Below are positions 3,536 to 58,494 of a stretch of 64,000 nt of DNA, piece by piece. The stretch's first letter is position 1; every line of letters begins with the position of its first letter. The position numbers and the translations under genes were made by a program. The notes under the pieces are model-generated. The model did not search any database, was not told the DNA's origin, and saw only the letters and a program-made list of their open reading frames with translations. This DNA comes from an uncultured Gammaproteobacteria bacterium (GTDB taxonomy: Bacteria; Patescibacteriota; Patescibacteriia; UBA9934): positions 142-64,141 of the forward strand of contig CAYFMS010000002.1 in NCBI GenBank assembly GCA_964344415.1, written 5' to 3'.

Positions 3536-4852
3536 TTATTTTGATGGCGTGAATGCTTCTTTAAGCGTTCGATAGTCTTTTGATGTAATGATATGTTCAA
3601 ATCCCATGCGCTCGGCCTCTTTGATTCGCTTTTCAAGCAGGGAAACATTGCGAAGTTCACCCGATAATCCAACTTCGCCAATATAAACGCTATTTGGTTT
3701 TGGAAGCTTGTCTTGAAAACTAGAAATAATGGCAGCGATGATAGCAAGATCTGCGGCCGTTTCTTTTATTTTCATTCCACCAATGACATTTACATAGACA
3801 TCATGTGAACTCAAGCTGATGCCAGCTCGCTTGCTAATAATCGCAAGAAGCATATGTAGCCTTGAACTATCGACGCCGCTTGCGCGACGAAGTGGATTGG
3901 GATAGTGACTTTGCTCAACAAGCGCTTGAATCTCAACAAGAAAGGGTCGATTACCTTCCATGATGCAGGTGATGACGGATCCAGGGCCGTCAACACGCTC
4001 AGCTAGGAATCGTTTGGATGGGTTCTCAACAGGTATCATTCCTGATTCAGTCATTTCAAATACACCAATCTCATCTGTGCTTCCAAAACGGTGCTTAGCT
4101 ATATGCATCATGCGAAAGCTTGTTTTTTTATCTCCTTCAAGCGTAATAACGGTATCAACAAGATGTTCGAGTGTTTTTGGTCCCGCGACGGATCCCTGTT
4201 TTGTTACCTGGCCGATGAGCAGCACGGGAACATTTGTGCTTTTCGCAAATCCAATGAGTTGGGATGTTGCAGCTCGAACCGCTGTTGGTGATCCTGGTAG
4301 ATTGTCAGCATCTGCAGGAATCATGGTTTGAATCGAATCGATAATAACGAGCTGCGGTTTTATCTGATCTGCCGCTGCAATAATTGAGTCGATTTGAACA
4401 GTATTTGAAAATGAGATTTGTTTGGGTTCTATGCTGAGTCTTTTGAATCTCATCAGAACTTGACCCTCGGATTCCTCTCCAGAAATATAGAGCACAGGTT
4501 TTTGTTTCGATTTTGTAAGAGAGTCCGCTATTTGGGCGACAAGTGTTGATTTTCCAATTCCTGGTTCACCAGCAAGAAGTAGGATAGATCCCGGAACAAT
4601 TCCGCCAGAAAGAACACGGTCGAGTTCTGGTATATTCGTCGGTTCATGCTTTGCTTTTTGTTTGGATGCTGATGAAAGTTCAAGAAGAGGGGCCGGTGCA
4701 GCCCCTCCTTTTTTTGATTGTTTTTTTGTAGCGCCGATGCTGGCAGGTGCTTCAGAGGATCCTGACTCGATGAGCGTACCCCATTTTCCGCATTCACTGC
4801 ATCGACCTTGCCACTTCAAGCTCTGTGCATCGCAATGACTGCAATGATACAT
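3536..4852 (-). CDS. radA: DNA repair protein RadA/Sms
   Basis: 438 aa; N-terminal C4 zinc finger CSHCDAQSLKWQGRCSECGKW, RecA-like Walker A GEPGIGKST, KNRFG motif, C-terminal Lon-protease-like domain. Confidence 0.92.
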   Translation of the reverse strand: MYHCSHCDAQSLKWQGRCSECGKWGTLIESGSSEAPASIGATKKQSKKGGAAPAPLLELSSASKQKAKHEPTNIPELDRVLSGGIVPGSILLLAGEPGIGKSTLVAQIADSLTKSKQKPVLYISGEESEGQVLMRFKRLSIEPKQISFSNTVQIDSIIAAADQIKPQLVIIDSIQTMIPADADNLPGSPTAVRAATSQLIGFAKSTNVPVLLIGQVTKQGSVAGPKTLEHLVDTVITLEGDKKTSFRMMHIAKHRFGSTDEIGVFEMTESGMIPVENPSKRFLAERVDGPGSVITCIMEGNRPFLVEIQALVEQSHYPNPLRRASGVDSSRLHMLLAIISKRAGISLSSHDVYVNVIGGMKIKETAADLAIIAAIISSFQDKLPKPNSVYIGEVGLSGELRNVSLLEKRIKEAERMGFEHIITSKDYRTLKEAFTPSK

Positions 4853-4853
4853 A

Positions 4854-6224
4854 CTATCTGATTTGTTTGCATGAATTCTTGGTCCAATCCCATTTTACAC
4901 AAGTGTCAGGGACTGTGTACCGTTTATCCCGAGTATAGCTAATAGAATTATTGCTTGTTGAACATCCACGGGAAACGCTCAGGTTATTTAATTCAAAATG
5001 CCATGGCTCGCTTGAAATACGACAGAATCCATTGTCGATCATAGCTCGTGTCATTTCATTGGTGCATTCGACGTCTAAATTATTGCGAGTACTGCCGACA
5101 CAATAAACATCCACGGCAACAGATGAAGTATGCGGACAATTACCAATATTGGCATTTTGCGTTAATTGGCTGACAATGACGCTTTCGCTTGTTTGTCCAG
5201 CGAGACTGCCGCTTAAGGTGTATTGACCATTTACCTTTTCAACAAGTCCAGTGCCAGCCGCTGGGTTGCATGTTGGTATGGTGCAGGATCCTGTTTTAAG
5301 GCAATTGTCGTAAAAGAGTTGTGCTTGTTTCTCAGGATCGCGAAAGGCTGAAACGATTCGAATATCGGTATTGGTTTCTTCATAGAGGTCGATCGCGGCA
5401 TTTTCAAGTGCTGCAAGGGCATCGGGATTAATGCGATTATCTCTTGCATTTACAATGATATGCTGGCCGATAATTGGGACGAGGTCGCCAGATATATCCG
5501 TTCTCGGAATGGCTTCATGTTCACCGTCTGGGTGCAAATGATGGGGGCTGCTTTCAATATAGCGTAGATTCAAACTCTCAAAGCGCGTCAGGCGAGGGTC
5601 AATAAGCTCCGCAATTGCTACAATAAGCAGAACGACAACAATGCTCATAATCGCCTTCCCAAGGAGTGCTTTTGCTCTACCTGTTTGAGCGGAATCGCCA
5701 CGTGCAAGCATCCACATAAGCCCCGCAATCATAATGATAATGACGGCAATGACAGACGTGATTACAATCAAGATTTGATAAGCGGCATTTACATAAACGC
5801 CAATGAAATTTGAAGAGATTGCTTCGCCGCTTTGCGTAGGCTGCGAAAAAATGGCTCCTGGAAGTGGTATAGCAAGATTGGGGGTCTGAGCATCTTTCTT
5901 TACAACTTCTTCATCGGTAGAGCTTGGTTGATCGTCGATATTTCCAGATGTAATAGCGCTTGTGCTTGCGCCGCAGAATGCTTGAAATGTACCGCGCTCG
6001 AATCCAAGAATTTCCTTGCAGGCCGTTTGGCACTCGGTCGCAAGAACGGATTCTCCAGATGCAGCAACAGCATCTGCAATACTCCCAGTGCTATCAAGAT
6101 ATAATTCCGTTCGATCACCATCAGAGCAATCACATACATAGGGATCTTGGCAGGCGGCCAACGTTACGATTGGAAATGTAAGTAGTGCAACAATGGCTGG
6201 AACGATGAATGCGATTCGAATCAT
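4854..6224 (-). CDS. Cys-rich secreted/membrane protein: signal peptide, two-helix hydrophobic hairpin (VirB2/TrbC-pilin-like topology) fused to C-terminal peptidase M15 (VanY/D-Ala-D-Ala carboxypeptidase-like) domain
   Basis: Signal peptide MIRIAFIVPAIVALLTFPIVTLAAC; hairpin ILIVITSVIAVIIIMIAGLMWMLARGDSAQTGRAKALLGKAIMSIVVVLLIVAIAELI; M15 motifs SAFRDPEKQAQL, SVAVDVYC and EPWHFEL; >20 Cys. ATGA overlap with downstream DsbA-like gene. Confidence 0.55.
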   Translation of the reverse strand: MIRIAFIVPAIVALLTFPIVTLAACQDPYVCDCSDGDRTELYLDSTGSIADAVAASGESVLATECQTACKEILGFERGTFQAFCGASTSAITSGNIDDQPSSTDEEVVKKDAQTPNLAIPLPGAIFSQPTQSGEAISSNFIGVYVNAAYQILIVITSVIAVIIIMIAGLMWMLARGDSAQTGRAKALLGKAIMSIVVVLLIVAIAELIDPRLTRFESLNLRYIESSPHHLHPDGEHEAIPRTDISGDLVPIIGQHIIVNARDNRINPDALAALENAAIDLYEETNTDIRIVSAFRDPEKQAQLFYDNCLKTGSCTIPTCNPAAGTGLVEKVNGQYTLSGSLAGQTSESVIVSQLTQNANIGNCPHTSSVAVDVYCVGSTRNNLDVECTNEMTRAMIDNGFCRISSEPWHFELNNLSVSRGCSTSNNSISYTRDKRYTVPDTCVKWDWTKNSCKQIR

Positions 6225-15473: not shown

Positions 15474-16520
15474 ATGAAAGAGCAGCTTGAATCGATAAAA
15501 AAAGAATTTGAATCCGTTATTCGTGATGTAACGAGTTTGGAAGCACTTGAGTCAATTCGTGTAGATTTTCTCGGGAGAAAGGGGAAGGTTGCCGAGGTGC
15601 TCAGAGGGCTTCCCGATATGGCGGAAGATGCTCGTCGAGAGATGGGGCAGCTTGCTAATGAAGTGAAGAGTTTTATCGAAGAGCAATTTAGTATCGCCGA
15701 AATAGACGTTCTAAAGCGTGAAAAAGGTCAGAGGGTTCAAGAAGAATGGATTGATATCACTGCACCGGCCAAAGATCTGGATATTGGACATTTGCATCTG
15801 ACCACGCAGGCGATTAATGAGATTGTTGAGATTTTTGAACAAATCGGTTTTTCACGATCACGGCATCCTGAAGTCGATTGGGATTGGTATGCTTTTGAAT
15901 CTCTTAATTTACCGAAAGACCATCCAGCGCGCGATGAATGGGAAACATTCTTCATTGCAGACGGTGAACAAATCATGAAGGGGGAGAAGGGTAAGGTGGT
16001 TCTTACGCCGCATACCAGTAATGCGCAAGTGAGGCAGATGGAAGTGCAGAAACCACCGATTCGCATGATTAGCATCAATAAAACATATCGACGTCAAGCG
16101 GGTGTGCGGCATTTGCCGATGTTTCATCAATTTGAAGGCTTGCTCATTGATGAAAAAACGAGCATTGCAGAATTGAAGGGCGTGATTGACCATTTTGTGC
16201 AAAACTTTTTTGGTCCTGATAGGACGACTCGACTGCGGCCCCATCATTTTAGATTTACAGAGCCAAGTTTCGAGGTAGACATTTCGGCGGAAGCTGGTCG
16301 TGAAGATGAAAAATTATTTAAAGCTGGCTGGCTCGAGCTTGGTGGTGCCGGAATGGTGCATCCGAATGTTATAAAAGCAGCTGGACTTGATCCAGAAAAA
16401 TACACCGGTTTCGCTTTTGGATTCGGCATAGAAAGGGTGGCAATGATGAAATCAGGAATCAATTTGTCTGATATTCGGCCAATGTATAAAAATGATTTGA
16501 GGTTTTTACGACAATTTTGA
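15474..16520 (+). CDS. pheS: phenylalanine--tRNA ligase alpha subunit
   Basis: 348 aa; class II aaRS motifs FRFTEPSFEVD and GWLELGGAGMVHPNV. Confidence 0.92.
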   Translation: MKEQLESIKKEFESVIRDVTSLEALESIRVDFLGRKGKVAEVLRGLPDMAEDARREMGQLANEVKSFIEEQFSIAEIDVLKREKGQRVQEEWIDITAPAKDLDIGHLHLTTQAINEIVEIFEQIGFSRSRHPEVDWDWYAFESLNLPKDHPARDEWETFFIADGEQIMKGEKGKVVLTPHTSNAQVRQMEVQKPPIRMISINKTYRRQAGVRHLPMFHQFEGLLIDEKTSIAELKGVIDHFVQNFFGPDRTTRLRPHHFRFTEPSFEVDISAEAGREDEKLFKAGWLELGGAGMVHPNVIKAAGLDPEKYTGFAFGFGIERVAMMKSGINLSDIRPMYKNDLRFLRQF

Positions 16521-16541
16521 TAGCTGGTAAGTTGTAGCTGA

Positions 16542-16553
16542 TAGCTTGTAGGT
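16542..16553. repeat. left inverted repeat (TAGCTTGTAGGT) flanking the four-helix-bundle gene
   Basis: Pairs with ACCTACAAGCTA at 16941-16952; additional partial copies (gtagctg / cctacaacctaca) nearby. Confidence 0.7.
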
Positions 16554-16925
16554 ATGGGAACGCAATCACACAAAGACCTTATTGTATGGCAAAAGGCTAT
16601 GAATCTTGTCGAGTTGATTTACCGGATTACGAGTGAATTTCCTCGCTCGGAGCAATTCGGCCTAGGGTCACAAATGACAAAATCAGCAATATCTATACCT
16701 TCAAATATTGCTGAAGGACGGAGGCGCTCCTCGAGGAAAGATTATGCAAGATTTGTGAATACTGCATTTGCATCAGCGGCCGAACTGGAAACACAAGTAG
16801 AAATAGCTAGACGTATTGGTTACATAAATGAAATCCAGTTCGAAATGACGAATCAACTTATCGAAGAGGTGCTAAAAATATTGAATGTTATGAATCAGAA
16901 GCTTCGGCTACCAGCCACAAGCTAA
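16554..16925 (+). CDS. four helix bundle protein (23S rRNA intervening-sequence protein family, TIGR02436-like)
   Basis: 123 aa; characteristic DLIVWQKAMNLV...IPSNIAEG...SAAELETQVEIA pattern; flanked by inverted repeats (16542-16553, 16941-16952). Confidence 0.8.
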   Translation: MGTQSHKDLIVWQKAMNLVELIYRITSEFPRSEQFGLGSQMTKSAISIPSNIAEGRRRSSRKDYARFVNTAFASAAELETQVEIARRIGYINEIQFEMTNQLIEEVLKILNVMNQKLRLPATS

Positions 16926-16940
16926 AACTTAAAACCTACA

Positions 16941-16952
16941 ACCTACAAGCTA
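16941..16952. repeat. right inverted repeat (ACCTACAAGCTA) flanking the four-helix-bundle gene
   Basis: Reverse complement of 16542-16553. Confidence 0.7.
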
Positions 16953-16965
16953 ACCCCTACACCCT

Positions 16966-19341
16966 ATGAATATACTTGCGAGCTACAATTGGATTAAGGA
17001 ATATTTGAAAACGGATCAGTCGGTTGAAACATTTGCTTCTGAAATGAGTTTGAAATCCATGTCCGTGGAAGAGATTATTGATTTGAAGAAAAAATTTGAT
17101 GGAATGGTCATTGGTTTTGTGGATGAGATAAAAGATCATCCAAATGCCGACAAACTCAAAATCGCTGTAACAAATATCGGAGATAAACAAGTGGACATTG
17201 TTTGTGGTGGTATGAACCTGAAACAAGGGCAGCGTGTTGTAGTTACGCTTCCTGGGTCAAAAGTTCGTTGGCACGGGGAAGGTGACCTTATTGAATTGAA
17301 AGAAACAGAAATCCGCGGTGCAAAAAGTTATGGAATGATCTGTGCGGGTGCGGAGGTTGGTTTTGAAAAAGCGCATACGGGAGAAAAAGATATTTGGGAT
17401 TTGACTGATATCACAGATGCCGAGCCAGGAACTCCATTTTCAAAAGCATTCGATATGGAGGATTATTTGATGGACATCGAGGTAACAACGAATCGATCAG
17501 ATAGCATGAATATTATTGGGCTTGCGCGTGAAGCGGGAGTTGCTACCGATGGAGAATTTGTTCATGAACCAAATAAGCTTCCAGCTGGAGGCACTGGGAA
17601 AGATTTGAAAGTGGATATTCAGGAAAAGGATCTCTGCCCGCGATATATGGCGGTTGTCATTGATGGAATAAAGGTTGGTCCATCGCCGGCATGGCTTCAG
17701 AGGAAAATTCTTCTATCCGGACATCGGCCGATCAATAATATTGTCGATATTACAAATTTGATTTTGCATGAGTATGGGCAGCCGCTTCATGCATTTGATT
17801 ATGACAAATTAAAAGATGGAACGATTATTGTGCGTCGCGCAAATGACGGTGAGAAATTTGTGGCACTTGATGAAAAAGAATATGAGCTTGCATCCTCGAA
17901 TTTGGTTATTGCAGATGCCGAGAAATCAGTAGCCCTCGCGGGAATTATGGGAGGACTTGATTCTGGTACATGGAATGAAACGACGACTATTGTGTTCGAG
18001 GCGGCCACATTCGATGCATTGACAACACGAAAAACAGCAAGATCTCTCAATCTTTATTCGGATTCTCAATCAATGTTCGAGAAGGGGCTTTCAACCGAGT
18101 CTCCAGAATCAGCTCTGGCTCGCGCGGTGGAGTTAACACTTGAAATAGCTGGAGGGCAGGTTGCGAGTCAGGTGATCGATATTCGGAAAGAAGAGTATCA
18201 GCCACTACATTTCCCAATCAATCATGACCATATGCGTCGTATTATCGGTGTTGATATTCCGGATGAAGATCAAATCGATATTCTGAAAAAGCTTGGCTTC
18301 ACTGTGAGCGGCGGGGAAGTCACGGTTCCGTATTGGCGAGATCATGACATTGAGCATAGCGTCGATTTTGCAGAGGAAATTGCGCGCATGTATGGATATC
18401 ACAATATTCCATCGAAGCTTCCGTCCGGCCAATTATCCTTGCAGCAAAAAGATCAGAATTTGAAATGGGAGGGTTGGATGAAGCGACAATTGCAGGCCGC
18501 GGGATATACGGAATTTTTCAGCTACTCATTTATTGGTGAGGATGAATTCCGCAAATATGATTTAGATACGGACGATGCAGTGAAGATTTATAATCCGTTA
18601 TCGAGTGATTTGACGCATATGCGAACATCGCTTATGCCGTCGCTCCTTTCGAGTATTGCACAGAATCAGAAGCATACGCCTGCCGGTAGGGTTTTTGAAA
18701 TCGCAAGGATTTATGAGGCGGTTTCTGGCAATTTACCAAATGAGTTAACGCATGTCGTTATTGCAAAATTTGGACCAGGTAATTCCCTTGATGATTTTCG
18801 AGAACTGAAAGGCATTGTCGATATGTTGAATCGGGATACGGGCCTTGCGCTCACATTGCACCGAATTAACGATGACCCTTATTGGCATGCATCGCGCAGT
18901 GCAGAAATAAAACATGATGGGCGGCGTATTGGTGTTATCGGGCAAGTCGCGGATGAATATCAAAAACAATTCGGCATTGATTATCCTGTGATGGTTTTAC
19001 AGATGGATCTCGAGGCAATTATACCGTCTATGGTTGAAACGCGTTATTATGAAGTGCTGCCTGAGTACCCAGCCGTACGTCGTGATATTGCTCTACTCGT
19101 CGATAAAACGGCTGAGTTCGAATCGGTGAAAAATCTATTCAAGGCAGAGTCTACACTTCTTGAATCAGTTGATCTTGTAGAGATTTATGAAGGGAAGGGA
19201 ATAGAAAATGGTAAGAAGAGCATGACGCTTGGATTGAAGCTCCGTTCGGCAGATAAGACGCTTGCATCTGAAGAAGTCGACGCTGAAATGAAAAAGTTTG
19301 AATCAGTGGCAACGGAAAAGCTCGGAGCGGAGGTGCGATAG
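16966..19341 (+). CDS. pheT: phenylalanine--tRNA ligase beta subunit
   Basis: 791 aa; tRNA-binding N-domain, B3/B4, B5 and FDX-ACB-like C-terminus; immediately after pheS apart from the insertion. Confidence 0.9.
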   Translation: MNILASYNWIKEYLKTDQSVETFASEMSLKSMSVEEIIDLKKKFDGMVIGFVDEIKDHPNADKLKIAVTNIGDKQVDIVCGGMNLKQGQRVVVTLPGSKVRWHGEGDLIELKETEIRGAKSYGMICAGAEVGFEKAHTGEKDIWDLTDITDAEPGTPFSKAFDMEDYLMDIEVTTNRSDSMNIIGLAREAGVATDGEFVHEPNKLPAGGTGKDLKVDIQEKDLCPRYMAVVIDGIKVGPSPAWLQRKILLSGHRPINNIVDITNLILHEYGQPLHAFDYDKLKDGTIIVRRANDGEKFVALDEKEYELASSNLVIADAEKSVALAGIMGGLDSGTWNETTTIVFEAATFDALTTRKTARSLNLYSDSQSMFEKGLSTESPESALARAVELTLEIAGGQVASQVIDIRKEEYQPLHFPINHDHMRRIIGVDIPDEDQIDILKKLGFTVSGGEVTVPYWRDHDIEHSVDFAEEIARMYGYHNIPSKLPSGQLSLQQKDQNLKWEGWMKRQLQAAGYTEFFSYSFIGEDEFRKYDLDTDDAVKIYNPLSSDLTHMRTSLMPSLLSSIAQNQKHTPAGRVFEIARIYEAVSGNLPNELTHVVIAKFGPGNSLDDFRELKGIVDMLNRDTGLALTLHRINDDPYWHASRSAEIKHDGRRIGVIGQVADEYQKQFGIDYPVMVLQMDLEAIIPSMVETRYYEVLPEYPAVRRDIALLVDKTAEFESVKNLFKAESTLLESVDLVEIYEGKGIENGKKSMTLGLKLRSADKTLASEEVDAEMKKFESVATEKLGAEVR

Positions 19342-19394
19342 TGGCATACAGTTTTTCTTTCTACTAACTACGTACTGCGCTATAATCCAAATAT

Positions 19395-19673
19395 ATGATC
19401 GAAGCAAAAGAAATTTTATTTATTGTGCTTGCGTTCTGTGCGCTGTGGGTTACATTATTTTTCTGCTGGTTTGTGTATCAAATTGCAAGAGCGATTCGAC
19501 AGGTAAATACGGTGCTGAGCGAGGTGCGCGACCATTTAGCAAGGCTGGAAGAGACAATAACAGGCTTTCGCGGTCGATTCGGTGATGGAGCAACAAATCT
19601 TGGGAAAATGGCGGTGCATATAAAACATTTCATAGATGGATGGAAGGGGAGTAAGAAGAATGGGCAAGAATAG
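19395..19673 (+). CDS. small membrane protein (DUF948-like topology: N-terminal TM plus coiled coil)
   Basis: 92 aa; single N-terminal TM LFIVLAFCALWVTLFFCWFV. Confidence 0.4.
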   Translation: MIEAKEILFIVLAFCALWVTLFFCWFVYQIARAIRQVNTVLSEVRDHLARLEETITGFRGRFGDGATNLGKMAVHIKHFIDGWKGSKKNGQE

Positions 19674-19894
19674 TTGCTCATTTTTTCTATTTTGCGCTAT
19701 TCTGGATTTAGGAGGTGAATAATGACCCCGCTTCACTTGCGCCGGAATGCGCGGCGCACTTGGAAAAAAGTGTCGCCTTTTGTGGTGACGGCAGCATGCA
19801 TTGCCCTCGTGCTTGTCCCGGCCATCAGCCGGTCCCTATTCGTCGATGTCGACTATTCATGAGATATGTTTCGAGACCGGCGATTTTTATTTCA

Positions 19895-19920
19895 TCAAAA
19901 AAAGCGCAGTTTTGCGCTTT
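19895..19920 (-). terminator. rho-independent terminator after the MOSC gene
   Basis: aaagcgcagttttgcgcttt hairpin with T7 on the minus strand. Confidence 0.6.
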
Positions 19921-19945
19921 ACGGAAATTGTATTGGTGCCTTCAT

Positions 19946-25916: not shown

Positions 25917-26240
25917 GATTCCTCCTTTGTGTAGGTCTTCATTCAGCGTAGCAACTTGCAGAAAAATGGTCAAAACTTGCGAAATAAAACATATTTTGTA
26001 CAATGATTTCATCACGACGATGGGGAGTAACGAACCCTTGAGTGCCGTGCCAAGCGGATCTTGGCAGAATTGAGTGATGCTATTTAGAGAAAAGAATGGC
26101 ATAACTCGGGTGGAACCGTCGAGCCAAGCTCGATCCCGAGATAATCTCGCATAAAGATGCGGGACTAATCTCGGTTTTTTGTTTAACGGAAAGTTCAACA
26201 TGTTGAAATGTTGAATCACTCGCTACGCTCACTTGTTCAT

Positions 26241-26597
26241 ATGAGATTCAATTATGAGAATTTAACAGTCGTTCAAGAGATTCGTAGTTTAATCCGTCTG
26301 GTATACGAACTTACGAAAATACTTCCATATGATGAGCGCAGAAATCTAAAAAGTCAGCTCCAACGTTCCGCGACGTCAGTACTACTAAACATTGCGGAAG
26401 GCAGTTCTCGGCAGAGCAGAAAGGAGTTCGCGCGGTTTATCAATATAAGTATTGGATCACTTGTGGAAGTGGACGCCATACTGAATATTATGGAAGATGT
26501 GAAGTACTTATCTCCCGACGCTCGTTCGCAAATTGATCCCCTGATACAGTCCATATACTTTAAACTTGTAGCACTAAGAAAATCTCAAACACATTAA
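26241..26597 (+). CDS. four helix bundle protein (second copy)
   Basis: Pattern NLTVVQEIRSLIRLVYELTKILPYDERRNLKSQLQRSATSVLLNIAEGSSRQSRKEFARF matches the family. The ORF begins at 26208, but ATG 26241 gives a family-typical N-terminus. Confidence 0.7.
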   Translation: MRFNYENLTVVQEIRSLIRLVYELTKILPYDERRNLKSQLQRSATSVLLNIAEGSSRQSRKEFARFINISIGSLVEVDAILNIMEDVKYLSPDARSQIDPLIQSIYFKLVALRKSQTH

Positions 26598-26619
26598 ACA
26601 ATTTTAACAATTTGAACAT

Positions 26620-31114: not shown

Positions 31115-31542
31115 ACGCCAAGCTTAGCACAGCACATTCGGACATCGCAACCATTGTTACTCGTGAGCTTGATCGAAATCCTAAACTTGCCGCGCAAACA
31201 AAGTATACTTTCCGAAACTGCCGCCACCTGCGAGACTGTCACATTGCATGCGGCAGGAGCGAGGAATTGCAAAACAGCCGATAGGAATGAACGCATCATT
31301 GCACTAAGAAAAATAAAGACATTCCTACTCTCTGTTTTGCCCGAGCGATGACGCTCTATGCATGTGACAAAGCGAGCACTGGCGGCGTTCTTTTGCTTAC
31401 TTTTCTTTAAAGAAAAGTAAGATGAAAAAACAAGAGATCCCTGCCTGCCGGCAGGCGGGTTAAGCCCGGAATGACAGGTGGTAAACTCCCTTAAACTCCA
31501 CGGGATGCCGGATCAAGTCCGGCATGACGTAAAACTCTTCAA

Positions 31543-33152: not shown

Positions 33153-33156
33153 AGAT

Positions 33157-33588
33157 TTATTTACCTGTTGATCCGTGCCCGCCTCGATTCTTATCTCCCA
33201 ATGCGTCTACTTGAGTGAATTCGGCGCGGATATGTGGAACGATAACACCCTGCGCAACGCGGTCACCAGGTGAGAATTTCTTTTCTTCATTCGTAACATT
33301 CTCGAGTATAAGAAATATTTCATCATCATTTCCTGAATAGTCGCTATCAATGACTCCAACGTCATTTCCCATTGTTACTCCGAGTTTGAGTGGCCCGGAA
33401 GATCTAGAGAATACAAGAAGAACATGATTCTGTGGCACTTCCATCGCAAGGCCGGTGCGCACAAGTTTCATCTGTCCAGGATTCAGCTGAACATCTTCTA
33501 CGAGGTGAAAATCAAACCCGGCCGCCCCTTCTGTTTTGTATTCGGGGATGATTGCATCCGGATGAATCTTTTTTATCCTCACATTCAT
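33157..33588 (-). CDS. dut: dUTP diphosphatase
   Basis: dUTPase motifs AAGFDF, GVIDSDYSGND, RVAQGVI. Start taken at internal ATG (MNVRIKK), because the 190-aa ORF has a non-conserved N-terminal extension. Confidence 0.8.
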   Translation of the reverse strand: MNVRIKKIHPDAIIPEYKTEGAAGFDFHLVEDVQLNPGQMKLVRTGLAMEVPQNHVLLVFSRSSGPLKLGVTMGNDVGVIDSDYSGNDDEIFLILENVTNEEKKFSPGDRVAQGVIVPHIRAEFTQVDALGDKNRGGHGSTGK

Positions 33589-33644
33589 ATGCAGATAGCT
33601 TAGCAGATAACTTAGCCATTTTTTGATCTTTTCCACATGTAAAA

Positions 33645-42629: not shown

Positions 42630-43535
42630 ATGGATGAGAATAAAAAGCAACTCGATTCTGCTTATAAGGATATTGAGAAAGACTACAGGCGAGGCATAAC
42701 GCTGACGCAGTTTTTGCCGCGGGCGAAGCGGGCGTTTTATGTCATATGGGCCATTGTCGATATCGCACTTCTTTTATTCTTTTTTGGATTTATCACTTGG
42801 TATCTCATTAATGGGATTTTTGTTGAGAAGCGGACGGTGGCGCGTATTGGGTTGAATTTAGGGACTCATCATGACATAACCGGAGCGAATCAGGCCGAGG
42901 CATTGGTGACGAGCGACCCTCTACTTTTTGCGAGTGGGGATCGATTTGATTATGTGGCCGAGATAGAGAATGGAAATGATGATTGGTATGCAGATTTTCG
43001 ATATTATTTCAAAACAGCGGAAGGAACGACTGATTTTGAGCGAGGTTTTGTGCTTCCTGGGGAGAAAAAAGTGCTTGCTTCGATAGGGCAGGACATTGGC
43101 GGGCGTAATGCTGATTTAGTTATCGAGGATTTAACTTGGCATCGCATTGATGCGAGAGAGGTTGGTGATGCGGATATTTGGTTTGCCGAGCATCGTGATA
43201 TTGAAATTCTTGATGTGAGTCATGGGGCAGGAGCGATTATTGGTGACCAATCGTTGATTCAGACGACATTTTCGGTGATCAATAATTCCCCATATTCGTA
43301 TTGGACAAGTGATTTTTATGTTGTGCTTCGTCGAGGGAAGACGATTGTTGGGGTGAATAAGGTTCAGCTTGCGGGCCTTGTGGCTGGTGAAGAACGTGAT
43401 GTGAAAGTAAATTGGTTTAATGGTGTTCCTGCCGGTGCGACAGCTGATGTGGAGATGTCGATCAATTTCTTCGATGAGGATTTATACATGCCAAACCCCG
43501 AGGACGGCGCTGATGAAATTTTGGATTTTCTTTAG
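42630..43535 (+). CDS. hypothetical membrane-anchored protein
   Basis: 301 aa; single N-terminal TM (FYVIWAIVDIALLLFFFGFITWYLI). Confidence 0.45.
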   Translation: MDENKKQLDSAYKDIEKDYRRGITLTQFLPRAKRAFYVIWAIVDIALLLFFFGFITWYLINGIFVEKRTVARIGLNLGTHHDITGANQAEALVTSDPLLFASGDRFDYVAEIENGNDDWYADFRYYFKTAEGTTDFERGFVLPGEKKVLASIGQDIGGRNADLVIEDLTWHRIDAREVGDADIWFAEHRDIEILDVSHGAGAIIGDQSLIQTTFSVINNSPYSYWTSDFYVVLRRGKTIVGVNKVQLAGLVAGEERDVKVNWFNGVPAGATADVEMSINFFDEDLYMPNPEDGADEILDFL

Positions 43536-43620
43536 AGAAAAGTTGGGGAAGTTAGAAAAGCGAGTAAAGTTGGGGGAATGAGATGCATGGAGGAGATAGA
43601 AGAGATTCAGGAGACTTATG

Positions 43621-43813
43621 AGCTTGTAGGTTTTAGGTGGTAGCTTGTAGGGTTGTTGTCATCCAGGATCTTCGCTTTCGTATTACGATGGATTCCGGCT
43701 CGGAGGCCGGAATGACGTGAAGCTCCTAAATCTCCTTTGTCTCTTTCGCACCTAAATACGTATATCTGTACCATCTGTACATCCGTAACGACAACCTAAA
43801 ACCTAATAGCTAC
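43621..43813. repeat. gene-less copy of the TAGCTTGTAGG inverted-repeat pair enclosing about 130 bp of non-coding sequence
   Basis: agcttgtaggttttaggtggtagcttgtagggttgttgtc at 43621-43660 and acaacctaaaacctaatagctac at 43791-43813 (reverse-complementary). Interior contains the CCGGAATGAC motif also seen at 31465. Confidence 0.6.
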
Positions 43814-43841: not shown

Positions 43842-44990
43842 ATGTTGCTGCGAAGCATTTTAAAAAAATTGGTAAAACTTGACTGGCTGATGATTCTATC
43901 CGTCTTTGCTCTCTTTATTTTTGGCTTATCGGCGATATATTCGGTTGAGCTTTCACATGCAGCTTCAGACTTTATTTTTCTGCGCAAACAATTGATAGCG
44001 GCTGGGATTGGGTTGGTTATTGGGGTGGCCGCAATGAGCATGCATTACATGCAGTGGCGAAATCTGGCGCGTATTCTCTACATCACTGGTGTCATTTTAC
44101 TTATTCTCGTTCTGATTTTTGGAACAACGGTACGTGGAACAACAGGTTGGTTTGTATTTGGTGGATTCTCATTTCAGCCGGTTGAGTTTATGAAGCTCGG
44201 GCTTGCGGCCGAGCTCGCGAGATTCTTTTCAAAGCTCGGCCGCCCAAATATCGGTTGGCGCGAAATAGGAATTAGCGGCTTTTTAACATTCATACCGACT
44301 GTTCTCACAATGATGCAGCCGGATCTTGGGAGTGCCATGCTTCTTGTGGGGATGTGGATGATTTTCCTTTTATTTGCAGGGGTGAAAATGAAACATGTCG
44401 CGGCGTTTATTTTGGCGACAATTATAATTGGTCTTTTTTCGTGGCAGCTTGTTCTGCGTGACTATCAAAAAGAGCGAATAGCGGTATTTATGAATCCAGG
44501 TCTTGATCCACTTGGAGCTGGTTACAATATTACGCAAGCAAAAATTGCCATTGGGTCCGGAAAAATTCTAGGCCGAGGTCTTGGTTCTGGGTCGCAATCA
44601 CAGCTACGCTTTTTACCAGAAAGCCAAACTGACTTCGTATTTGCTGTTATTGCAGAGGAACTCGGATTTTTAGGTTCCATGTTTATCTTTCTCGCCACAG
44701 CTCTCTTACTTTCAAGAATGCTCAGGCTTGCCTATGGCAGCAGGGATCCATTTGCCTCCTATCTTGTCATTGCAATATTCGCACTCTTTTTTGCGCAGAT
44801 TTTCCTAAATATCGGTGTGAACCTGTCTTTATTGCCAGCAACAGGTGTCGCATTGCCATTTGTGAGTTACGGAGGAAGCTCGCTTCTTATATCCTTTTTA
44901 CTTATCGCTATTGTGCAATCTGTAGCAATCGAGTATCGTCCTCAGGGAAAAAATGATCATGGTATACTTGATATGCCCATTACATTATGA
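43842..44990 (+). CDS. SEDS family peptidoglycan glycosyltransferase (FtsW/RodA/SpoVE)
   Basis: 382 aa; 10 TM helices; conserved PESQTDFVFAV and SYGGSSLL motifs. Confidence 0.85.
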   Translation: MLLRSILKKLVKLDWLMILSVFALFIFGLSAIYSVELSHAASDFIFLRKQLIAAGIGLVIGVAAMSMHYMQWRNLARILYITGVILLILVLIFGTTVRGTTGWFVFGGFSFQPVEFMKLGLAAELARFFSKLGRPNIGWREIGISGFLTFIPTVLTMMQPDLGSAMLLVGMWMIFLLFAGVKMKHVAAFILATIIIGLFSWQLVLRDYQKERIAVFMNPGLDPLGAGYNITQAKIAIGSGKILGRGLGSGSQSQLRFLPESQTDFVFAVIAEELGFLGSMFIFLATALLLSRMLRLAYGSRDPFASYLVIAIFALFFAQIFLNIGVNLSLLPATGVALPFVSYGGSSLLISFLLIAIVQSVAIEYRPQGKNDHGILDMPITL

Positions 44991-57630: not shown

Positions 57631-57693
57631 TCACACACATTATCGTGTAGTGATCAGATCCACCTCGTGGACTTATCTGCCATACGGCAAAAC

Positions 57694-57720
57694 AAAAAAC
57701 CGCCTTCGGGCGGTTTTTTG
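57694..57720 (+). terminator. rho-independent terminator after the giant surface-protein gene
   Basis: aaccgccttcgggcggtt hairpin followed by ttttt. Confidence 0.75.
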
Positions 57721-57760
57721 GTGCTTTACTTTTCTCCCTAAATGGGTAAACTATGCGAAT

Positions 57761-58477
57761 ATGGAATTATTGAAAAAATATCGGGTAATTGTAATTATCG
57801 TAGCTATTCTTGCGCTTGCTCTGGTGGCGATTATCGCTGGTCAAAACGGGAGTGATGATGCATACAGTGGATTGGTCACGCAGAAGAATGTTCAAATAAC
57901 TGATGGTGAGCGTGAAATGCTTCGGCAACGAATTCTTGTGTCGCAGCAAACATTAGAACAGCAGCAGCGTTCGGATGAAGATGTTGATTTAGATTTAATA
58001 TCTGACATTGCATATGACTCGATGCTCATTGGTGATTTGGTTACAGCTCGAGAATATTATGAAATGTATTTGGATCTTCATAATATTAATCCAGCTATTT
58101 GGCAGAACTATGCAGGCGTACTGCGGGACATGGAAGACTGGCAGGCAAGTGAAGATGCATATAGGCAATTGTCGGTTGTTAGTCTATCTGAATCGACGGT
58201 TATTTCTTTGGTAAAAGCAATTGACCGCAATAATCCAGACGGTAGTAGAGATGAAGAAATTCTAAATCTCCTTCTCACCTCGCTCGAAACGAGTGTGGGG
58301 CGGACGCCGGCGCTTTTGACGCATATTGCGCGTTGGTATGAAGATCACGGTGAATGTCAGAAAGCTATTGATCATTTCGAAGTTGTCGAAGATATGCTAG
58401 ATGAGCTTGGTGAGGATACGAGCGGCGTCATTGCTGACATCGAGCATGTGGAATCAACATGCGTCCCGACTGAATAA
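57761..58477 (+). CDS. membrane-anchored hypothetical protein (helical repeat, TPR-like)
   Basis: ATG at 57761 after the terminator; N-terminal TM (VIVIIVAILALALVAIIA); helical, acidic C-terminus. Confidence 0.45.
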   Translation: MELLKKYRVIVIIVAILALALVAIIAGQNGSDDAYSGLVTQKNVQITDGEREMLRQRILVSQQTLEQQQRSDEDVDLDLISDIAYDSMLIGDLVTAREYYEMYLDLHNINPAIWQNYAGVLRDMEDWQASEDAYRQLSVVSLSESTVISLVKAIDRNNPDGSRDEEILNLLLTSLETSVGRTPALLTHIARWYEDHGECQKAIDHFEVVEDMLDELGEDTSGVIADIEHVESTCVPTE

Positions 58478-58494
58478 CATGATAAAATAGGCCT

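Follow-up and report, generated by a model that had tools for sequence, protein, structure and literature searches.

Why are pheS and pheT, the genes for the alpha and beta chains of phenylalanyl-tRNA synthetase, separated by a 445-bp gap in a 64,000-nt stretch of DNA from an uncultured member of the Patescibacteriota (contig CAYFMS010000002.1; hereafter the window, 44% G+C, densely packed with genes and from a genome near Candidatus Uhrbacteria), and what is the 123-amino-acid open reading frame (ORF) that fills this gap? A first-pass annotation of the window had pointed to the split and had proposed that the inserted gene, of the four-helix-bundle type known from 23S rRNA intervening sequences (IVSs), belongs to a family carried on, or associated with, a small mobile cassette. 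Here, we find that the insert is a discrete and ancient unit in the standard packaging of its gene family, namely between two inverted arrays of tandem heptamers, that the same array design exists without the gene, and that array-bounded units have been gained at different sites in other lineages. The interpretation that we favor, with moderate confidence, is that of an insertion cassette of the rRNA-IVS type, lodged in a protein operon. The features of the locus are as follows:

15474..16520, + strand: pheS, phenylalanyl-tRNA synthetase alpha (Pfam tRNA-synt_2d, 4.7e-82); its TGA stop is followed directly by the first heptamer
16521..16553, + strand: left arm, tandem heptamers TAGCTGG TAAGTTG TAGCTGA TAGCTTG TAGGT; contains TAGCTTGTAGGT and runs up to the start codon (ATG) of this cassette's gene; period 14 (2x7) in Tandem Repeats Finder (TRF)
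16554..16925, + strand: gene of the 123-amino-acid four-helix-bundle protein (23S rRNA intervening-sequence protein family; PF05635 131 bits, TIGR02436 121 bits, PDB 2GSC E = 3.5e-26)
16908..16964, + strand: right arm, about eight heptamers CTACCAG CCACAAG CTAAAAC TTAAAAC CTACAAC CTACAAG CTAACCC CTACACC, complementary to the left arm
16966..19341, + strand: pheT, phenylalanyl-tRNA synthetase beta (Pfam B3_4, tRNA_synthFbeta, FDX-ACB, B5, tRNA_bind)

Both the coordinates and the family matches agree with the split as first described. Namely, the ORF scores 131.1 bits against PF05635 (cut-off 33.8) and 121.5 bits against TIGR02436 (cut-off 24), and its residues 4-115 match the solved pentameric four-helix bundle of XCC0516 (2GSC) with E = 3.5e-26 at the level of sequence. 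The protein of the cassette is also recorded on a 768-kb metagenome contig, amid the same order of genes. The models for Avd of diversity-generating retroelements (DGRs) stay below their cut-offs (NF033474, 42.3 bits with a cut-off of 80; PF22296 bAvd, 38.6 bits with a cut-off of 40). The sole Pfam matches are 23S_rRNA_IVP and bAvd, with none to an HUH/Y1 transposase, and no PADLOC model of defence systems matches the gene. What is more, the family is very large, with at least 7757 matches at E <= 1e-10.

The gene had been said to be bounded by a 12-mer and its reverse complement, and this pair is indeed present and exact (TAGCTTGTAGGT at 16542-16553 and ACCTACAAGCTA at 16941-16952). However, the ends of the insert are heptamer arrays and not a fixed terminal inverted repeat, the two 12-mers being the best-matching portion of these arrays, whose units are of the type NNNNTAG upstream and CTANNNN (about CTACAAS) downstream. 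TRF places the right array at 16917-16952, with a period of 7 and 5.1 copies; its heptamers cover the last 6 codons of the ORF and stop 1 base short of the pheT ATG. As the arrays run from the pheS stop to 1 base before this ATG, we take the cassette to be 16521-16964 (444 bp). With up to 2 mismatches, TAGCTTGTAGGT occurs 12 times in the window, where 2.0 occurrences are expected and none of 100 shuffles reaches 12, and 10 of the 12 matches fall in the insert and in a second site at 43.6 kb. By our own arithmetic, two flanks of 60 nt would share an exact inverted repeat of 12 nt by chance about 2e-4 times. In the RNA fold of 16505-16980 (z = -3.06), both the minimum free energy structure and the centroid close the ORF by a stem between the left and right arrays, which is predicted to pair 16533-16553 with approximately 16934-16957. 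Scans with Rfam and tRNA models return no Rfam family and no tRNA in the window, and the cassette does not lie in helix 9, 25 or 45 of a 23S rRNA.

How old is the insert? To compare pheS-pheT junctions, we fetched 80 genomes with PheS 52-74% identical to that of the window, among which the junction was measurable in 64 Patescibacteria (loci carry L-numbers as labels). The two genes lie 3-16 nt apart in 28 of the 64, including nine of the ten closest relatives; 13 junctions hold fillers of 30-190 nt, several of which are gene-less inverted heptamer hairpins (GCGTCGG in L032, TTACGAA in L051 and L057, AATTTTG in L028); and 23 hold larger inserts, including small membrane proteins and GIY-YIG genes with perfect 33-nt inverted repeats. 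The orthologous four-helix-bundle gene is found in only one of the 64, namely L003, the closest relative (PheS 74% identical), where the protein is 62% identical to that of the window. Its arms, GGGGTAA GGTATAG CGTGTAG GGAGTAG on the left and TACACCC TACAACC TAAACCC TACAACC on the right, have diverged in sequence, with the heptamer period, the GTAG/CTAC core and the right boundary kept, the latter being a single t before the pheT ATG in both genomes. Relatives with an empty site likewise have a single t between the pheS stop and the pheT ATG, the sequence in L004 being TAAtATG. Between the window and L003, synonymous sites are saturated (pS 0.74-0.77), and the ORF is intact in both. Since ORF, arm period and core have been kept despite saturated silent sites, the insert is old, inherited and maintained. 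Its distribution is patchy, and the relatives do not all carry the gene without flanking repeats, nor does the repeat prove to be a common unrelated motif.

The junction is, in its own right, an insertion hotspot in Patescibacteria (about 4560-4900 in most of the loci L003-L082), where the inserted ORFs include GIY-YIG genes, a recurrent protein of about 110 amino acids with four transmembrane segments, and larger genes.

The window holds two further units that bear on the question, and their features are listed here:

26193..26618, + strand: second cassette, upstream of thrS; its gene is a paralogue of 118 or 129 amino acids (from 26241 or 26208 to 26597), 33% identical to the first
43620..43660, + strand: left arm of a gene-less element, GAGCTTG TAGGTTT TAGGTGG TAGCTTG TAGGGTT + GTTGTC (TRF 43621-43650, period 7, 4.3 copies)
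43658..43716, no strand assigned: core of the gene-less element, with inverted 'GTCAT-type' palindromes GTCATCCAGGATC and, on the minus strand, GTCATTCCGGCCTCCGAGCCGGAATC; no coding remnant
43790..43812, + strand: right arm of the gene-less element, GACAACC TAAAACC TAATAGC TA, complementary to the left arm (86% over 21 nt)

The second cassette ends 1 nt before thrS (26620). It has an inverted repeat (26193-26209 with 26601-26617, 82% complementary) and arrays of an 8-nt unit, ATGTTGAA x2 (26200-26215), and of a 9-nt unit, AACAATTTG x2.4 (26597-26618), such that its array unit differs from that of the pheS-pheT cassette. The unit of the latter, TAGCTTG, has two sites in the window, the other being the gene-less element, which lies between a membrane ORF without assigned identity (42630-43535) and rodA/ftsW (43842-44990). 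Earlier, the same repeat pair had been read at 43621-43813; it is in fact a related set of heptamer arms at 43620-43812 rather than an identical pair, with a left arm made of five TAGNTNN heptamers, a right arm made of three that are complementary, and units 1-2 mismatches from those of the pheS-pheT cassette. The approximately 130 nt between the arms are non-coding, as was stated, and have no Rfam match. The further suggestion that this site is an empty or deleted derivative of the cassette does not stand, because a tblastn search of the window with the protein finds no remnant of the gene here; instead, the interior holds other palindromes (43658-43670 and 43691-43716). The heptamer family to which the cassette's arms belong has, at 43620-43812, a member without a gene, which is a sibling and not a decayed copy.

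The palindromes of its core are an observation of their own. Namely, GTCAT...GGAATC/GGATC palindromes (window 43658-43716; L017 2880-3290; L030 3000-3450; L043 4900-4976; L068 4590-4630) flank GIY-YIG nuclease genes as inverted pairs in relatives, or stand alone before pheT; in L017, a perfect 33-nt inverted repeat surrounds a GIY-YIG gene between pheS and pheT, and in the window one such pair is nested within the gene-less heptamer element. Just upstream of this element, at 43535-43583, there is a purine-rich 22-nt direct repeat with 27-nt spacing (GAGAAAAGTTGGGGAAGTTAGA / GAGTAAAGTTGGGGGAATGAGA), and more purine-rich sequence there complements pyrimidine-rich DNA at 43718-43736, such that the two make up a second inverted repeat, an outer and imperfect one.

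Is such packaging particular to this genome? In 80 metagenomic loci fetched because they encode relatives 41-60% identical to the protein, nearly all have, by eye, units of 7-8 nt arrayed ahead of the ATG and the reverse complement of this array behind the stop codon, with units that vary from locus to locus (TAGCTTT, TAGGGAT, TAGCGTA, GGTTAAAA, CAGTGGC, AAGGCACA and others) and a period that, over the unique loci, is mostly 7 and less often 8. Flank complementarity exceeds the 95th percentile of 575 control genes in 59 of 71 unique loci (Mann-Whitney p = 4.5e-28). When the two arms of one locus are paired as RNA, the median for the duplex is -39 kcal/mol, versus -24 kcal/mol for arms swapped between loci; in 38 of 75 loci, the native pair does better than each of the 12 swaps. 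Most cassettes point the same way as the genes on both sides, from which they are separated by gaps with medians of 54 and 44 nt, and the operons that hold them are of all kinds. Half of the upstream units carry TAG. We considered that the heptamers might act as three-frame stop insulators and found weak support for this (upstream 16 of 41 sense versus 12 of 41 antisense, downstream 22 versus 15). The polarity of the arms as a sign of gene direction was likewise dropped: both strands alike read 5'-G-rich...C-rich-3', and an inverted repeat, being strand-symmetric, says nothing about gene direction. One locus, L102 (4200-4860), deserves a separate mention, as a gene for a 150-amino-acid membrane protein has complete gene-less array hairpins both before and after it, with units of the type TAGCTTN / AAGCTAAG and 8.5 perfect copies of CTAAGAAG downstream, which shows that such hairpins can also merely separate ordinary genes.

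The same layout can be followed into cultured organisms. In Xanthomonas, the order is accB-[CGGGAAT x4.4]-XCC0516-type gene-[CCCATTC x4.3]-accC, with the right array ending at the accC ATG or, described by unit, with [GGGAATC]n before and [ATTCCCN]n after the gene. A supplementary table of Rehm et al. 2015 has a GGGAATC array abutting XCC0516, and the same study counts 186 GGGAATC arrays genome-wide in Xanthomonas, 70 of them in convergent pairs, and draws no link between array and protein family (PMC4692102). In Nostoc punctiforme, the gene lies between CAGGAGT/CAGAATT arrays on pNPUN01, and on a plasmid of Anabaena sp. 90 it stands between cas6 and cas4, together with heptamers of the GGTGACA type that take up about 300 nt. 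An association of the family with cas loci has been reported (PMC3936711, PMC10910872), and the cas6-cassette-cas4 layout probably explains it. Looking at this locus more closely, the start codon of cas4 and approximately 22 codons at its beginning come from the right array in Anabaena sp. 90 (L164 1133-1981); a Dolichospermum plasmid with flanks 98-99% identical (L166 1134-1406) has an unrelated 273-nt filler, a different cas4 N-terminus and no cassette. We rejected this pair as a clean empty site, one filler having been replaced by another. Finally, the 23S IVS of Coxiella has an S23p ORF behind tandem GACAGAT heptamers and is excised by RNase III (PMC4990558), and rRNA insertions of the candidate phyla radiation sometimes encode this family (bioRxiv 10.1101/2024.02.27.582315).

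It is the plasmids of Nostocales that speak most directly to movement. Many Nostoc plasmids carry a four-gene operon, A-B-C-D, with 85-93% identity. A cassette with CAGGAGT arrays sits between B and C on pNPUN01, pNsp_a, pNPUN02 and pNPM1, and a different one, of another protein subfamily and with GGGGAAA arrays, between C and D on pNsp_c; the three plasmids inspected for empty sites, pC052_A, pNsp_b and pNFSY05, have nothing inserted at either junction, the sequence there being stop-gtt-ATG or stop-ATG. Moreover, a gene-less element of 182 nt, bounded by the same arrays as an inverted pair (DNA fold z = -10), interrupts the ORF of the cassette in pNPM1; the flanks of this element are approximately 99% identical to the intact allele of pNsp_a, with a duplication of at most 1 nt. 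This element is found in 150 places in 53 Nostocales plasmids. Array length differs between Nostoc alleles, and at the B-C site there is a possible 7-8-nt repeat, ambiguous as a target-site duplication. The dN/dS of the cassette gene, measured in the Nostoc alleles only, is 0.19-0.27, that is, the protein there is under purifying selection. These comparisons show that cassettes and gene-less elements of the array design move as DNA in Nostocales plasmids. Mobility in the genome of the window would follow from these other organisms. Taken together with the patchy presence and the shared layout, they bear out the initial proposal, namely that a small inverted-repeat cassette, which also occurs without the gene, carries the gene family or is associated with it. 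The accompanying statement that such mobility is essentially uncharacterised needs qualification, as the architecture matches that of ORF-containing 23S rRNA IVSs already known (PMC4990558), after which the family is named.

A detail of the filled B-C junction stands apart. The five codons with which gene B ends (SFRF*) are synonymously unlike those of the empty alleles, with AGT TTC AGA TTC TAA (L165 1415-1429) versus TCA TTC CGA TTT TAG (L167 1230-1244) after 35 nt that are nearly identical, and the change looks like recoding by the array or by the insertion event.

How would such a unit have come to lie in the pheS-pheT operon, and how would it be tolerated there? The cassette consists of a G/T-rich heptamer array, the four-helix-bundle gene and a complementary C/A-rich array. 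As the comparison with L003 and L004 shows, its point of entry was precisely the position after the pheS stop and ahead of the one spacer base that precedes the pheT ATG, and it arrived there in the common ancestor of the window organism and its closest sampled relative, having been kept since. It contains no consensus promoter and no + strand terminator of its own, for which reason it is probably transcribed together with pheS and pheT. In the transcript, the arrays would form a long, imperfect stem with each other, with the gene as its loop. Given that stems of this kind are the RNase III substrates by which rRNA IVSs are excised, the cassette would probably be clipped out of the pheST message, and clipping would make the insertion tolerable; RNase III excision is a feature of the IVSs and is extended to the cassette by analogy. 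The element at 43620-43812 is comparable to ORF-less IVSs or to a MITE (for miniature inverted-repeat transposable element).

That said, several observations weigh against this interpretation. The stem of the window's cassette is modest (12 perfect pairs), its duplex having -25 kcal/mol versus a median of -21 kcal/mol for swapped arms, and the fold of the 43.6-kb element is not significantly better than that of shuffles (z = -1.2 and -1.9). The check for a target-site duplication at the pheS-pheT junction, which had been suggested at the outset, gives none (window versus empty L004). No transposase was found within the cassettes and no partner insertion sequence was identified, a trans-acting transposase not having been searched for, and no recent insertion is seen in the window genome or its close relatives, so that the old pheS-pheT insert could now be a fixed host feature. 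None of 20 loci with long non-coding flanks, examined with Rfam, lies in an rRNA gene, which means that the link to IVSs rests on the shared protein family and architecture. Lastly, arrays without the gene are common (78 of 138 arrays in 944 kb), and the arrays could be the primary element, with the gene as a frequent lodger.

It is instructive to compare the cassette with known systems. The 23S rRNA IVSs of Leptospira and Coxiella have the same protein family inside, are approximately 430-450 nt long, have ends that pair into a stem, may carry tandem heptamers before the ORF (GACAGAT x3-4 in Coxiella), are known in short ORF-less versions, and show a patchy distribution, with mobility long suspected (PMC4990558). 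The cassette differs from them in lying at a protein-operon junction and not in helix 9, 25 or 45, and a non-rRNA location is the rule in our sample. With MITEs and mobile insertion cassettes it shares inverted ends, the lack of a transposase inside, gene-carrying and gene-less forms with the same ends, many dispersed copies (the 182-nt element of Nostocales) and presence/absence polymorphism. An example of a mobile insertion cassette is MIC231 of Bacillus cereus. Unlike these, the ends of our cassette are arrays of 7-8-nt units with variable copy number instead of a unique terminal inverted repeat, no target-site duplication is seen, no partner insertion sequence was identified, and the insertion is exact between a stop and the next start. 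As in the repetitive extragenic palindromes (REPs), the REPINs built on them and their associated transposases (RAYTs), a single-copy gene is flanked by inverted copies of a short, intergenic, dispersed repeat, and different gene/repeat pairs can coexist in one genome. RAYTs are HUH/Y1 transposases that act on hairpins; in contrast, the cassette protein is a 120-amino-acid four-helix bundle, and the repeats are tandem heptamers and not single palindromes. Avd of DGRs has a homologous four-helix-bundle fold that forms pentamers, but the cassette protein scores below the Avd cut-offs, adjoins no reverse transcriptase, template or variable repeat, and has different flanks. Finally, the heptamer arrays described in Xanthomonas (GGGAATC), Nostoc (GGGGAYT and the short tandemly repeated repetitive sequences, STRRs) and Beggiatoaceae (TAACTGA) have the same period of 7, are intergenic, often end at a start codon and often occur as convergent pairs, and those of Xanthomonas are literally the same array family as the flanks of the cassette gene (PMC4692102, PMC4679880). 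The studies in question treat the arrays as G-quadruplex or regulatory motifs (PMC4692102, PMC4679880), and we find in them no link to a PF05635 gene or to mobility.

Of the explanations that compete with an IVS-type cassette, the one that fares best inverts the roles of gene and repeat: as in the REP/RAYT partnership, the arrays would be primary, and the pentamer would recognise its own unit and spread or maintain the arrays, the flanked gene being the 'master copy' and the 43.6-kb element its dependant. We regard this as possible but rather unlikely. In its favor, the gene-less site of the window shares its unit with the gene flanks, the 186 genome-wide arrays of Xanthomonas have the GGGAATC unit of the gene flanks there, the dispersed 182-nt element has a cassette's arrays, units differ between paralogues within one genome (in the window and in Nostoc ATCC 53789), the protein is under purifying selection in the Nostoc alleles, and the solved homologue XCC0516 is a pentameric toroid (2GSC; PMC4990558). 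However, no nucleic-acid binding and no catalytic residues are known for the PF05635 protein, a 120-amino-acid helical bundle is not among the known recombinase folds, and constant presence of the protein in array-bearing genomes is not established. Unit similarity also correlates only weakly with protein similarity (Spearman 0.19), which leaves co-descent and recognition inseparable.

One may take this thought further and speculate that the encoded pentamer is a candidate array-binding factor. In its fullest form, which we put forward tentatively and consider doubtful, PF05635 pentamers would be the missing protein partners of the heptamer arrays (GGGAATC of Xanthomonas, STRR and GGGGATT of cyanobacteria, TAGCTTG of Patescibacteria), with each paralogue recognising its own 7-nt unit and being required for the spread, upkeep or processing of the arrays. 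Such an arrangement would amount to a new selfish system of gene plus repeat, like RAYT/REPIN, built on a non-enzymatic nucleic-acid-binding ring, in which the 23S rRNA IVSs would be the rRNA-lodged minority.

A second competitor, which we consider improbable, involves no movement at all: the arrays would have grown in place by replication slippage and serve as expression signals of a resident gene, be it to insulate or couple translation or as a hairpin that stabilises the transcript. It would fit with arrays that occupy entire spacers and abut start codons, with TAG in half of the upstream units, with the great age and stable inheritance of the insert, both here and in Xanthomonadales, and with array length that varies between alleles. 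It does not sit well with the fact that both arms share their unit within a locus, whereas units differ between loci, that one Nostoc operon has different cassettes at different junctions and clean stop-gtt-ATG empty sites, and that a complete gene-less array pair has inserted in coding sequence and is dispersed 150 times; moreover, three-frame stops are not enriched on the relevant strand (16 versus 12 of 41). Still less credit can be given to a functional tie between the gene and aminoacyl-tRNA synthetases, or to a DGR (Avd) remnant. Both copies in the window and a copy in L004 do adjoin synthetase genes, but 115 Pfam families are represented next to 77 cassettes, and synthetases are not enriched among them, and the gene is absent from the pheS-pheT junction in 63 of the 64 relatives; the weak similarity to bAvd (PF22296) is set against Avd scores below cut-off and the absence of a reverse transcriptase or template repeat adjoining the cassette. 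Finally, it is hardly conceivable that the repeat matches by chance or is an unrelated motif of common occurrence: the arms are short and AT-rich, and heptamer arrays are common in these genomes, but the excess of 12-mer matches in the window, the low expectation for the exact pair and the complementarity of flanks across the family all speak against it.

A few observations lie outside the argument. In 13 relatives (L034, L038, L042, L062-L065, L067, L070, L071, L077, L080 and L081), the alignment of PheT starts only at about residue 161-170 of the window protein, and on this account the PheT encoded there seems to lack the tRNA-binding (EMAP-like) domain at its N-terminus. The window also has ORF-poor stretches of 430-860 nt, with no ORF of at least 100 amino acids (57631-58494, 19342-19945, 33153-33644 and 31115-31542), in which no tRNA or Rfam family was found, and a 12-nt tandem repeat, GCAGATAACTTA x2.2, at 33591-33616.

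To return to the insertion cassette of the rRNA-IVS type, its parts were already known separately, namely the ORF-containing rRNA IVSs, the heptamer arrays and the protein family. In the literature that we searched, no paper links the PF05635/TIGR02436 family to heptamer arrays, and what is new relative to it is their connection, in the form of a standard cassette that is found mostly in protein operons and has gene-less relatives. This connection would tie together three loose ends: a large protein family without known function, the overabundant tandem heptamers, and the origin of rRNA IVSs. If it holds, the reported CRISPR-cas 'associations' of the family (PMC3936711, PMC10910872) would probably be insertions and not signs of function, and annotators could recognise units of this kind as insertions. 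What is more, a transposase-free element that inserts exactly from stop to start, leaving an essential operon unbroken, would pose a clear mechanistic question, for which Xanthomonas campestris and Nostoc punctiforme would be tractable models.

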